A DNA stretch of 64,000 nt from contig CAIVRE010000024.1 in the NCBI GenBank assembly GCA_903908245.1, forward strand, positions 9,676 through 73,675, in the 5' to 3' direction. Positions 3,001 through 6,000 of this stretch are shown here, in pieces. Origin of the DNA: Candidatus Omnitrophota bacterium. GTDB lineage: Bacteria > Omnitrophota > Gorgyraeia > Zapsychrales > Fredricksoniimonadaceae. Each line of letters starts with the position of its first letter. Position 1 is the first letter of the stretch. Position numbers: made by a program.

Positions 3001-6000
3001 CGGATAAAACGCGGGGGGGATTATCAGCATGTTGTCGGGAATGTCAGGCGCATGGTCGAGCTTAACAACAGAAGCAGGAAGCCCCTGACGATCATTGTCC
3101 AGATGCTTCGTGTGGAAGAGAATGGCGCGGAGTTTAAAAGTTTCAAGGCTTTTTGGGAGCGGGAGAAGCGCGTATTCGCGAAGAACAAGCCTTTTTCAAG
3201 CCGCGCCGGATCGGTCGGCAATAAGGCGCTGGTTTTGAGGAAAGGGCGCCTTGTCCGGTGTTCAAGGATCTGGAAGGGGCTGTATGTCTATGCGGACGGG
3301 ATGGTTGTCCCTTGTTGTAATGATTTTTTCTCCCGGCATCCGTTAGGGGACCTGAATTCACAGTCCATTGAAGAGGTGTGGAACGGGAAGGCTTTTGTTG
3401 ACCTGCGTCGGCATCATTGTACGGGGGAATTCGGACTGACGCCGATGTGCGGGGATTGCGAATTTCTCGGGACGGATTTTCATAAACAGCTGGCGACATT
3501 TGTGGTGGATGACCTTTCGGTGCGTCAATTGCTGGCGATCCTTGGCCCCGATTATTAGAGAGGGTTTATTGATGTTTCCCGTGGTTAGCAGAAGAGTGGT
3601 CGGTCTTTATAAAGGTGAACTGGCAGATATCGGGCGGCTGTTATTCCGGAAGCAGTTCATCAAGGGCCGTTACACCGATATCTTCGAGAAGGATTTTGCC
3701 AGGTATACCGGAGCGAAGTACGCCATTGCTGTCGGGTCCGGAAGGCTTGCGCTTTATGCGATCCTTCAGGCTTTGGATCTGCCCAAAGGCAGTCAGGTCA
3801 TAGTGTCGGCCTATGAGGATATGAGCGTCCCGGAGGCGATCCGCCAGGCCGGCCTTGAGCCTGTTTTCGTTGATATCGACTGTAAAACGCAGAATATCGA
3901 TCTGTCGCAGTTAAAAGGCAAACTGACGGATAAAACTTCGGCGGTCGTGGCGGCGCATATTTTTGGTAATCCGCTGGATGTCCCGGGGATCAGGGCGATC
4001 ATCGGTGAGCGAAAGATCTCGGTCATAGAAGATTGCGCGCATGCCCTGGGGACAAGGTTTGCCGGCGAACATGTCGGGACGGCGGGTGACGTTGCGTTCT
4101 TCAGTTTTAATACGACCAAGCCGTTCATGTGTTTTGGCGGCGGAATGATCATTACGGGTGATGAAAGGATCCATGACGCGTTAAGATCGTATACCAACAG
4201 TTTGCCTTATCCGGGGTATTTCGATATCATGAACCGGATCTTTTCGACGTATTTCCTGTATTTTCTGACTTCGGAGCTGGTGTTTTCTTTGTTTGTTTTT
4301 CCTTGCCTGAATTTTCTGGTCTTGATCAATGTTGAACCGAGGGTCATTTATAAAAAGTTATTTAAAAGATCGAAAAAGAGCATTGAGGCCGTAAAGTTCG
4401 CGAATATCCAGGCATTCATCGGGATAAGGAATTTTGAGGGCCTTGAGAATGCTTTGATGACAAGAGGGCGGAATGCCCGGATGCTGGATGCATTGATAAG
4501 AAGCGATATCAGCCGCCCATTACGGGCGGAAGGTTGTAATTATTATTTTTTTATCCTTTTTTCCAAAGATCGGGATGCTTTCAGGCGAAGGATGTTAAGG
4601 GAGGGGCTTGACAGCGGCCAGTCATTGATGAGGGATTGCGAGGCTCTTTTTAAAGCCAATGAGCTTTTTCCCAATACGGGCCTGAGCAGGGCGGAAAGCG
4701 TTCAGATCCCGGTATACGAGCAGTTGCCGCAGGGAAAGATCGAGGCGATCGCACGGATCATTAACAGGTGTTTTGTCTGTTGACGGTATTTATGTGGTGT
4801 TAGGGATCGGAAAATGAGCAAAAAAATCATTGGAAAGATCGGGATCCTGAGCCGGAAGGCGGGGATATGCGCCGCGTTCCTGAAGGCGGTCGTATCGGGC
4901 CAGGTGAAGCCTTTTGCCATAGGATGGTGCATAACGAACAGATGCAATTCAAAATGTGTTTACTGCCATTCCTGGAAAAACGCGGGTCCGGAGTTAAGCA
5001 CGGACCAGGCCAAAGAGATCATGCTTCTTTTGTCCAGCCGGGGGACGCGGGTCATTCGATTTACAGGAGGAGAACCGCTCTTGAGGGATGATCTGCCGGA
5101 ACTCCTTGCTTTGAGCAAAAGCCTGGGGATATGGACTGTCGTTGCGACGAACGGTATTCTAGTGCCGCTGAAGATCAGGGAGCTCAAGGGTGTTGACAGT
5201 GTCAGTATTTCCATTGATGGCCCGGAACATGTTCATGATGTGCTGCGCGGGGCCGGGTCCTATCAAAAAGCTGTGGAGGCGTGTGTTGTTTTATCCAGGG
5301 AGAATATTCCGGTCTCTATTTCAACGGTCTTGACGTCTTTGAATTCGGACAGTATTGAGCATGTCCTGGAACTTGCGTCGCGGTTCAGGGCGAAAGCCCA
5401 TTTTCAGCCGGCTACGGAGGTCATTTTGCGCGGGGATACCCCTAACGCATTTCTTCTTGAGGATGCTGATCGTTCCCGGGTGCTGGGCCGGTTGCTGGAC
5501 TTGAAGAAGAAGGGCGGGAGGGTCGGGAATTCAGGCGAGGCGTTGAAATACCTTTTAGGCCGGCCGCGCAGGGAGATCAGGGATTGTGTCGCGGGAAAGC
5601 TTTTTTTCCGGATCGAGGCGGAAGGAGATATGCGTGCTTGTCCGAGGTCGGGAAGACCGGCGGAGCGGTTAAATATATTAAGGCAGGGCCTGGACCATTG
5701 CCTGAAGAGCGTCGGTTCCCGCTCGTGTGATCATTGCCGGAGCGCCGCGATGATCGAAATGAATTTGCTCGCTGGTTTGAATTGGGGTTCCGTTGTTAAT
5801 GGCATAAGAAAGTTTTTTTGAATCCTGGCAATGAAAGGGTTGAATGAGGGTTGTTCTGGTCCATTGTCCTTTTGATCATCGGGACTTTTCAGAGAATCTG
5901 AAGGTCGTCGACGAGGAGTTCTGCCTTGCGCCGCCGGTCATCCTGGCGTATGTCGCGGCGATCCTGGAGAAGGCGGGCCATGATGTGATCATTGTTGATG

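Follow-up and report, generated by a model that had tools for sequence, protein, structure and literature searches.

A DegT-family aminotransferase with a conserved helical insertion of about 50 residues and its coupling to radical-SAM enzymes in envelope-glycan loci

We analysed a stretch of 64,000 nucleotides (hereafter the window) from a Candidatus Omnitrophota bacterium (contig CAIVRE010000024.1). It encodes a homologue of the DegT family of pyridoxal phosphate (PLP)-dependent aminotransferases that carries about 50 extra residues between its two domains. This insertion is genuine, is maintained by selection, and forms a structured unit; the sequence comparisons indicate that it marks a DegT subfamily previously undescribed in the literature that we searched. 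The strongest clue to its function, absent from the preliminary description of this DNA, is the tight coupling and natural fusion of these DegT proteins to radical S-adenosylmethionine (SAM) enzymes. We hold, with about even confidence, that the insertion is a monotopic or interfacial cap that binds the membrane or a lipid substrate, and that it places the transaminase on a lipid-linked keto-sugar supplied by radical-SAM partners.

The preliminary description had reported, at positions 4190–4420 (residues 207–283 of the open reading frame [ORF] 3572..4783), a hydrophobic insertion of about 50 residues downstream of the PLP-lysine segment FSFNTTKPF, followed by a Lys-rich stretch and missing from canonical DegT, ArnB, and PglE-type enzymes. 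All of this holds. The string IFSTYFLYFLTSELVFSLFVFPCLNFLVLINV (residues 223–254) contains 23 hydrophobic residues out of 32, and directly after it comes RVIYKKLFKRSKKSIEAVK, with 8 Lys or Arg in 19 residues. Alignment with canonical DegTs, including a second DegT gene of the window (34840..36042), leaves 51 gap columns at the insertion. In the closest solved relative (7b0d, E = 3e-43), residues 19–210 and 291–350 of the query match residues 49–241 and 273–335, with about 48 residues unmatched. A profile built from 108 members of the family splits all 73 solved DegT-type chains into two matches, at profile positions 5–216 and 274–408, separated by about 8 chain residues; none of these 73 relatives carries the insertion in this profile search of PDB chains. 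The query has about 50 residues instead of the short cross-subunit loop with an N-x-R motif that precedes the inter-domain helix in canonical enzymes. At the motif itself, the query has A-V-K, in which K275 corresponds to the Arg, and the subfamily has x-x-R; the Asn is lost.

Homologues sharing the insertion are numerous. Those at 66, 59, 54, and 53% identity are collinear through it, the alignment is unbroken down to 25%, and more than 100 collinear homologues were found between 25 and 66% identity. When the database matches of at least 350 aa among the 120 listed were aligned with MAFFT, the extra block was present in all but four of them (364–372 aa, the canonical length). The preliminary description had considered a frameshift or a sequencing artefact, of which we saw no sign in these unbroken alignments. 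It had also remarked that the insertion is AT-richer than its surroundings. This is correct (GC content of 0.33–0.41 versus ~0.52), but it is a compositional effect that carries no independent information, because the dip sits in codon positions 1 and 2 (GC1/GC2/GC3 of 0.32/0.25/0.53 in the insertion and 0.52/0.41/0.60 in the remaining gene) and because the GC expected from the amino acids and the local codon usage (0.39) is close to the one observed (0.37). Low local GC is what one would cite in favour of an artefact or of recent foreign DNA. The probability of this explanation is negligible: the identical protein (P0001 in the database) is found on 8–10 contigs from several separate metagenome samples, homologues are collinear down to 25% identity, GC3 hardly differs, and no break interrupts the reading frame. 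We thus rejected frameshift, mis-assembly, and foreign or mobile DNA; a tblastn search with the insertion region gave no match among PLSDB plasmids.

The rest of the protein is a recognisable DegT enzyme. A Shine-Dalgarno-like motif (GAGAGGG) lies upstream of the ATG at position 3572. The product belongs to the Pfam family PF01041 (DegT_DnrJ_EryC1; E = 6.5e-60, 203.7 bits versus a gathering cut-off of 19.8), with a match limited to residues 17–209, that is, positions 8–200 of the 360 of the profile; the C-terminal domain is divergent but still homologous to the DegT C-domain. H129, G132, E153, D154, G160, G169, and K183 are invariant in the subfamily, and K183, E153, and D154, which are invariant across the 108 homologues, align with the catalytic residues of solved DegT enzymes. 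The invariance of K183, E153, D154, and H129 indicates an intact PLP site and points to an active transaminase as the most likely function, not to a dehydratase of the ColD type: enzymes of the ColD/E1 type, which depend on pyridoxamine phosphate (PMP), have a His in place of the Schiff-base Lys, and the query keeps Lys183. The subfamily has a nearly invariant Ser-Gly-Arg (residues 56–58, around positions 3737–3745) where canonical DegTs have SG(T/S)D in the loop that binds the PLP phosphate, and this Arg (SGR58) may compensate for the displaced cross-subunit loop. The matches to NCBIfam models (LegC, PseC, ArnB, DesI, RfbH, and WecE) are all sub-threshold and confined to the N-terminal domain. 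Equivalog cut-offs were missed by far for ArnB (NF008658; 121.6 versus 631), PseC (133.2 versus 423.5), DesI (115.4 versus 650), and LegC (140.8 versus 420). Sequence comparison thus places the query inside the DegT superfamily and outside every named equivalog. The second DegT gene of the window (34840–36042, forward strand) is of canonical length (Pfam match to positions 3–359 of 360, E = 1e-102) and lacks the insertion; it has a His at the position of the Schiff-base Lys (FSLYAAH), which is the signature of PMP-dependent 3-dehydratases of the ColD/E1 type.

We searched 1.84 billion proteins with a hidden Markov model (HMM) profile restricted to the insertion region, and retrieved 1,756 representatives (50%-identity clusters) at E ≤1e-3 and 332 at E ≤1e-10. 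The scan of the species representatives of GTDB revealed 80 loci, all of them in metagenome-assembled genomes (MAGs). Most are from Acidobacteriota/Vicinamibacterales and many from the Candidate Phyla Radiation (CPR)/Patescibacteria; the others are from Omnitrophota, Planctomycetota, Elusimicrobia, Nitrospirota, Hydrogenedentota, Desulfobacterales, and one Methanosarcinales archaeon. The family profile matches 79 of these 80 loci in one stretch across the insertion, and the remaining one (L062) is cut by the end of its contig. The relatives of the query nearest to it among the species representatives are distant (27–41% identity in the best segment). No curated NCBIfam model, PDB entry, or PLSDB plasmid corresponds to the insertion-bearing subfamily, and full-text literature searches returned no description of it.

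The insertion folds into a compact helical unit in structural models. AlphaFold2, given an alignment of 108 sequences, modelled the query with a mean predicted local distance difference test (pLDDT) of 94.3 and a predicted TM-score (pTM) of 0.92. As assigned by DSSP on this model, the insertion is a helix-turn-helix plus a short helix (residues 216–232, 235–251, and 256–264; pLDDT ~95), followed by a Lys/Arg-rich loop and then by the canonical inter-domain helix (278–308). The same three helices were modelled, with a pLDDT of 95.5, in a member of an Acidobacteria-type clade that is 30% identical (P0029). In a Foldseek search against the PDB, all the top 50 matches were DegT enzymes and the two-domain fold of type I was recovered. 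The TM-scores were 0.73–0.80 when normalised by the query and 0.78–0.87 when normalised by the target (E between 1e-31 and 1e-26), a difference that a module of about 50 residues without a counterpart would be expected to produce.

We quantified hydrophobicity with the Kyte-Doolittle mean over 19 residues (KD19), and computed the family statistics over 104 insertion-bearing homologues. In the query, KD19 peaks at 2.35 (residues 236–254), versus at most 1.33 elsewhere in the protein and a maximum of 1.0–1.8 outside the insertion in the homologues. There is thus at least one segment of 19 residues or more with bilayer-type hydrophobicity, on a par with the transmembrane segments of the polytopic proteins encoded nearby (GT-C, flippase-like, and Wzy_C; 2.36–2.68). 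Helix 2 of the query is apolar on all faces (hydrophobic moment of 0.07, mean hydrophobicity of 0.71). The preliminary description suggested a membrane re-entrant anchor, and its strong version, an integral anchor made by a bilayer-embedded re-entrant or two-helix transmembrane hairpin, fits these values, the nearly continuous run of 30 apolar residues that has a helix break halfway along and a Lys/Arg cluster behind it, and the KD19 of 1.9–2.2 kept by five close relatives (P0002, P0003, P0006, P0008, and P0013). We nevertheless regard it as quite unlikely. The helices have 17 residues each, and the tip between them is polar or charged (TSE in the query, T-(R/K/S)-P in the family, with T-(R/K)-P in most of it). 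The Hessa sum of the best 19-mer, a simple sum without position weighting, is positive and borderline (+1.2 kcal/mol). Both flanks of the insertion belong to one globular fold, which leaves a hairpin returning to the same side as the only possible topology. Finally, the module is conserved in the 82 of 104 members in which the bilayer-type hydrophobicity is not: the family median KD19 is 1.2 and values above 1.6 are found in 22 members only. For this reason, such hydrophobicity is a trait of the clade of the query, not of the module. The insertion of the query is hydrophobic, as the preliminary description stated, and a deep re-entrant anchor is possible in this clade but less likely than a cap or a role in which the helices are buried in protein.

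The signature shared across the family is of another kind. Compared with the remaining protein, the insertion has more Trp (5.1-fold), Phe (1.7), Leu (1.55), Lys (1.7), and Arg (1.3), and less Asp/Glu (0.6-fold) and Ala/Gly (~0.5). In most members, helix 1 is amphipathic and strongly cationic (usually +6 to +8), with Lys or Arg at positions 217, 218, 220–222, 227, 230, and 234, and hydrophobic residues at 219, 223, 228, and 231. At the basic positions, the query has Tyr, Phe, and Met instead; the version of the clade is aromatic and hydrophobic, as if hydrophobic binding had taken over from electrostatic binding. Helix 2 keeps F238, P244, and L246 family-wide, plus Trp/Tyr. In 91 of the 104 members, the 19-mer with the most favourable Wimley-White interfacial value in the entire sequence falls within the insertion, with a median of -6.4 kcal/mol versus -3.45 elsewhere. 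Conserved aromatic and basic residues, a paucity of acidic ones, and favourable interfacial partitioning are thus all present, as in interfacial enzymes, and this composition is the one property of the module that does not depend on context. Because the family-wide property is interfacial, a cap embedded in the membrane surface is better supported than a deep anchor.

The genetic context of the query is an operon of co-directional genes separated by gaps of at most 30 nt, in which radical-SAM genes surround the DegT gene (Table 1). Upstream of it, the longer contig has more radical-SAM genes, an ABC-2 exporter pair, and WbqC. The solved relatives of radical-SAM enzyme 3 are SkfB, GDGT-MAS, viperin, and BlsE. 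The radical-SAM enzyme with a B12-binding domain (B12-radical-SAM) scores 148 bits against the NCBIfam model of HpnJ (cut-off of 578) and matches AprD4 in the PDB (6fd2, E = 3.8e-22). Sugars or lipid-linked sugars are the substrates of the closest known relatives of these partners (AprD4, HpnJ, and BlsE), some of which make ketones. The weak matches of the GT2 glycosyltransferase have PgfS at the top and include AglJ, ArnC, PpgS, and DPhHxTase, which are of polyprenyl- or dolichyl-phosphate types; others are GT2 of the exopolysaccharide (EPS) or poly-N-acetylglucosamine (PNAG) types. We found no nucleoside diphosphate (NDP)-sugar dehydratase, UDP-sugar oxidase, or decarboxylase in the operon; NDP-sugar dehydratase genes lie 20 kb away, with the canonical DegT. 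The lipid-linked keto-sugar that the preliminary description put forward as the substrate would suit such a membrane-glycan operon lacking an NDP-sugar dehydratase. Membership in a hopanoid (Hpn) cluster was considered and rejected, given the low HpnJ score and given that the GT2 and the flippase-like protein do not match HpnI or HpnL.

We clustered the neighbours encoded within 6 kb of insertion-bearing DegT genes across 85 non-redundant loci, and three arrangements recur. The most frequent neighbour is the B12-radical-SAM, found in 38 of the 85 loci; in 21–25 of them, it immediately precedes the DegT gene on the same strand, frequently overlapping it by 4 nt. In Acidobacteriota it forms a module in the order B12-radical-SAM, DegT, DedA/VTT (L009, L011, L023, L085, L088, and about 30 other MAG loci), where it is HpnJ/AprD4-like below the cut-offs, successive genes often overlap by 4 nt at their stop and start codons, and no sugar-nucleotide genes adjoin the module; DedA/VTT is directly downstream of DegT in 12–13 loci. 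The second arrangement is that of CPR, with the order Mur ligase, DegT, FemAB beside FtsQ (e.g., L057, L061, L063, L071, and L082). Here, the Mur ligase, adjacent in 18 loci, has a hydrophobic N-terminal extension, FemAB is adjacent in 11–12, an alpha/beta hydrolase also adjoins, and the DegT gene sits inside a cell-wall and division cluster. These CPR members keep the insertion without having a radical-SAM neighbour. The third arrangement associates a SPASM-type radical-SAM and a B12-radical-SAM with GT-C, as in the window. Each of the conserved contexts is one of membrane-proximal envelope glycan or lipid chemistry, with GT2, GT-C, flippase-like, DedA, FemAB, Mur ligase, or FtsQ proteins.

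Some of these partners are fused to the insertion-bearing DegT in database proteins retrieved by the HMM search, with full-length matches to both halves. In one of them (P0144), a radical-SAM enzyme precedes a DegT, and the two parts are 31% and 43% identical to radical-SAM enzymes 1/3 and to the DegT of the window; in another (P0163), the order is reversed. The radical-SAM halves of both are 31–33% identical to enzyme 1 over its full length. A third fusion (P0180) joins a B12-radical-SAM, 31% identical over the full length to that of the window, to DegT, and others join DegT to FemAB (P0208) and GT2 to DegT (P0212). Read from these predicted proteins, the natural fusions show that the coupling between insertion-bearing DegTs and radical-SAM enzymes is direct. 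Apparent fusions of 606–722 aa at three loci (L012, L024, and L070) were discarded as artefacts of ORF extension in high-GC DNA. The Methanosarcinales locus (L019) has three DegT matches, several B12-radical-SAM genes, and a 658-aa ORF (3283–5259, forward strand) with an N-terminal half that by eye resembles a glycosyltransferase and a radical SAM/SPASM part.

The interfacial composition of the module and the membrane-proximal envelope chemistry of its conserved partners are the reasons for reading it as a cap. Several observations weigh against this reading. The positive Hessa sum, the polar tip, and the modest hydrophobicity of most members were given above. In addition, none of the family assignments of the radical-SAM enzymes comes near the curated cut-offs, the matches of the GT2 are weak, and the window is so rich in radical-SAM genes that proximity alone is weak evidence. 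Furthermore, the loop that the insertion replaces lies at the dimer interface in DegT structures, so that the hydrophobic faces of the module might be hidden between the subunits or against a radical-SAM partner. The latter point leads to the main alternative, a cytosolic enzyme with a soluble structural subdomain, whether a four-helix bundle at the dimer interface, a docking site for radical-SAM enzymes, or a lid over a bulky non-lipid substrate. The alignments place the insertion where the interface-crossing loop would be, compact helices are confidently predicted in both the query and its Acidobacteria-type relative, and conservation of the kind expected for packing residues is seen at F238, P244, and L246 and at the hydrophobic positions in helix 1. 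The tight coupling and fusion to radical-SAM enzymes also suggest a complex, and the moderate hydrophobicity of most members and the polar tip pose no difficulty here. Yet, the helices of the query clade are hydrophobic or aromatic on all faces, of which a bundle would bury only a part. The fivefold enrichment in Trp, together with that in Lys/Arg and the depletion in Asp/Glu, is typical of membrane interfaces and not of buried helical cores. Alignment columns vary more in the insertion (entropy of 2.63 bits) than in the remaining protein (2.00 bits), which speaks against a tightly packed core, and the CPR members argue that the module is not specifically a docking site for radical-SAM enzymes. 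We thus consider a soluble subdomain possible, if somewhat doubtful.

Under the cap reading, the mechanism could be as follows. In canonical DegTs, a short loop at the dimer interface reaches the active site of the neighbouring subunit and helps to hold the nucleotide-sugar; its replacement by an aromatic and basic helical hairpin suggests that the substrate is anchored differently. The aromatic and aliphatic side chains of the hairpin would dip into the cytoplasmic leaflet, and the flanking Lys/Arg would engage either anionic head groups or a polyprenyl-phosphate carrier through its phosphate. The GT2 would first put a sugar on polyprenyl phosphate. At least one radical-SAM partner (of the SPASM type or the AprD4/HpnJ-like enzyme with a B12 domain) would then make a keto or keto-deoxy group, a step that would require neither oxygen nor an NDP-sugar 4,6-dehydratase. 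The capped DegT would transaminate this ketone at the membrane surface, after which the flippase-like protein would carry the product across the membrane and the GT-C would pass the amino sugar to an acceptor in the envelope. We infer the membrane contact, the lipid-linked substrate, the order of the steps, and the chemistry of the radical-SAM partners from composition and gene context.

Comparison with known systems shows what is shared and what sets the query apart. Canonical DegT/DnrJ/EryC1/StrS enzymes, such as 7b0d (an archaeal sugar transaminase), 3bn1 (GDP-perosamine synthase), 1mdo (ArnB), 3frk (QdtB), WbpE, PseC, and DesV, have the same two-domain fold of type I, the Schiff-base Lys, the E-D pair, the His and Gly motifs, and a C-domain recognisable by profile. 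The query differs from them by having about 50 residues for a loop of about 8, SGR for SG(T/S)D, and no Asn in N-x-R, and by being coupled to radical-SAM enzymes without an adjacent NDP-sugar 4,6-dehydratase. PLP transaminases work in tandem with radical-SAM enzymes, which produce or use up the keto or amino sugar, in BtrN/BtrS (2-deoxystreptamine), DesII/DesI (desosamine), and BlsE/BlsH (blasticidin S), and AprD4 is a diol dehydratase that makes a keto-deoxy sugar. The window resembles these pairs in having a B12-radical-SAM nearest to AprD4 and BlsE among the relatives of radical-SAM enzyme 3, and the fusions of the subfamily show a direct coupling. However, the substrates of the known pairs are soluble NDP-sugars, nucleosides, or pseudosaccharides in antibiotic pathways, their aminotransferases lack the insertion, and the similarities found in the window are far below cut-offs.

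The lipid-carrier pathways that are comparable include Arn (ArnB, ArnC, ArnD, ArnE/F, and ArnT), FlmF2/NaxD/FlmK of Francisella, and PpgS/Rv3779 of mycobacteria. As in Arn, the operon of the window has together a DegT, a GT2 (with weak matches to ArnC, PpgS, and AglJ), a flippase-like protein, and a GT-C. In Arn, soluble ArnB aminates a soluble UDP-sugar before its transfer to the lipid carrier. The aminotransferase of the window carries instead a hydrophobic module, and four radical-SAM genes are interleaved in its operon. Membrane caps are known in monotopic enzymes: the helix-turn-helix alpha18-alpha19 of FAAH, which soluble amidases lack, the amphipathic membrane-binding helices of prostaglandin H synthase, and the re-entrant helix of PglC. 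In these, a soluble fold bears a short hairpin, or short aromatic helices, ringed by basic residues next to the substrate entrance. The composition of the insertion and its Wimley-White profile fit this plan; the query has no relation to them in sequence or fold, and membrane contact, established by experiment in these enzymes, is presumed in ours.

Textbook biosynthesis of amino sugars proceeds by cytosolic amination of soluble nucleotide-sugars. For carrier-linked sugars, the reactions known at the membrane include deacylation and epimerisation (ArnD, NaxD, and DprE1/E2); such sugars are not known to be transaminated. A bolder proposition, which we regard as rather unlikely, is that the insertion-bearing DegTs are the first PLP transaminases acting directly on membrane-anchored keto-sugars, in an anaerobic route to amino sugars of the envelope that is independent of nucleotide-sugars and would be widespread in uncultured phyla. 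The carrier would be polyprenyl phosphate in the operon of the window and a lipid-II-type intermediate in CPR, and the ketone would come from the partner or fused radical-SAM enzyme. If true, this would add a new type of step to envelope-glycan pathways, across the ~1,756 clusters retrieved by the profile (332 at the stricter threshold), give a function to many orphan radical-SAM genes of polysaccharide loci, and provide a sequence marker of such pathways, namely the insertion of about 50 residues plus the SGR motif. Even if the hairpin were a protein-protein interface, the fusions with radical-SAM, GT2, and FemAB proteins would define an uncharacterised enzyme partnership.

Table 1. Features of the insertion-bearing DegT gene and of its operon, with positions in the window
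Feature	Position	Strand	Basis and remarks
GT-C glycosyltransferase (PMT_2, ArnT/Agl23-like, 9 transmembrane-like segments)	4..1578	+	Pfam, NCBIfam; first operon gene in the window
Radical SAM enzyme 1, SPASM-like Cys-rich C-terminus	1575..2558	+	Pfam; family fused to insertion-bearing DegT elsewhere
Radical SAM/SPASM enzyme 2	2572..3558	+	Pfam Radical_SAM + SPASM; stop 13 nt before DegT start
Insertion-bearing DegT-family PLP enzyme	3572..4783	+	ORF list; 403 aa, stop included in coordinates; database gene call identical
Large PLP-binding domain, residues 1–212	3572..4207	+	Alignment, PDB comparisons
Codon (aag) of Schiff-base lysine K183 in FSFNTTKPF	4118..4120	+	Sequence
Insertion, residues 213–272	4208..4387	+	~49–51 residues without counterpart in canonical DegT
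Insertion helix 1, residues 216–232, YFDIMNRIFSTYFLYFL	4217..4267	+	DSSP on model; hydrophobic moment 0.38
Insertion helix 2, residues 235–251, ELVFSLFVFPCLNFLVL	4274..4324	+	Model; conserved F238, P244, L246
Insertion helix 3, residues 256–264, PRVIYKKLF	4337..4363	+	Model; family motif D-x-Y-F-W-E-x-I-R
Lys/Arg-rich loop, residues 261–275, back to the canonical fold	4352..4396	+	pLDDT ~65 in the 261–270 block
Inter-domain helix (residues 278–308) and small C-terminal domain	4403..4780	+	Profile positions 274–408 match 7b0d, 3bn1; model
Radical SAM enzyme 3, paralogue of enzyme 1	4814..5821	+	Pfam; starts 30 nt after DegT stop
Radical SAM enzyme with a B12-binding domain, nearest relatives HpnJ and AprD4	5844..7262	+	Pfam, NCBIfam, PDB
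Flippase-like polytopic membrane protein (LPG_synthase_TM / TIGR00374)	7262..8221	+	Family matches, count of transmembrane segments
GT2 glycosyltransferase	8218..8934	-	Pfam, NCBIfam
Wzy_C / O-antigen-ligase-like polytopic membrane protein	8941..10152	-	Pfam, count of transmembrane segments

Elsewhere in the window, the canonical DegT gene belongs to a separate NDP-sugar cluster, together with two UDP-glucose dehydrogenases, three epimerase/dehydratases, a GHMP kinase, an ABC exporter, and a GT4 glycosyltransferase, flanked by radical SAM/B12-binding radical SAM genes (30020–31255 and 39817–41283, both on the forward strand). In all, the window has at least six radical-SAM genes in envelope-glycan loci, which suggests that the host is an anaerobe with heavy radical-SAM tailoring of its glycans. 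A scan of the 64 kb with Rfam gave no family at the gathering score. A homologue of LptD (19753–21936, forward strand) indicates a diderm with lipopolysaccharide (LPS) transport. The same strand encodes two tandem diguanylate cyclases with GGDEF domains (16429–18731) and two adjacent, slightly overlapping paralogues of UDP-glucose/GDP-mannose dehydrogenase (21872–24569).

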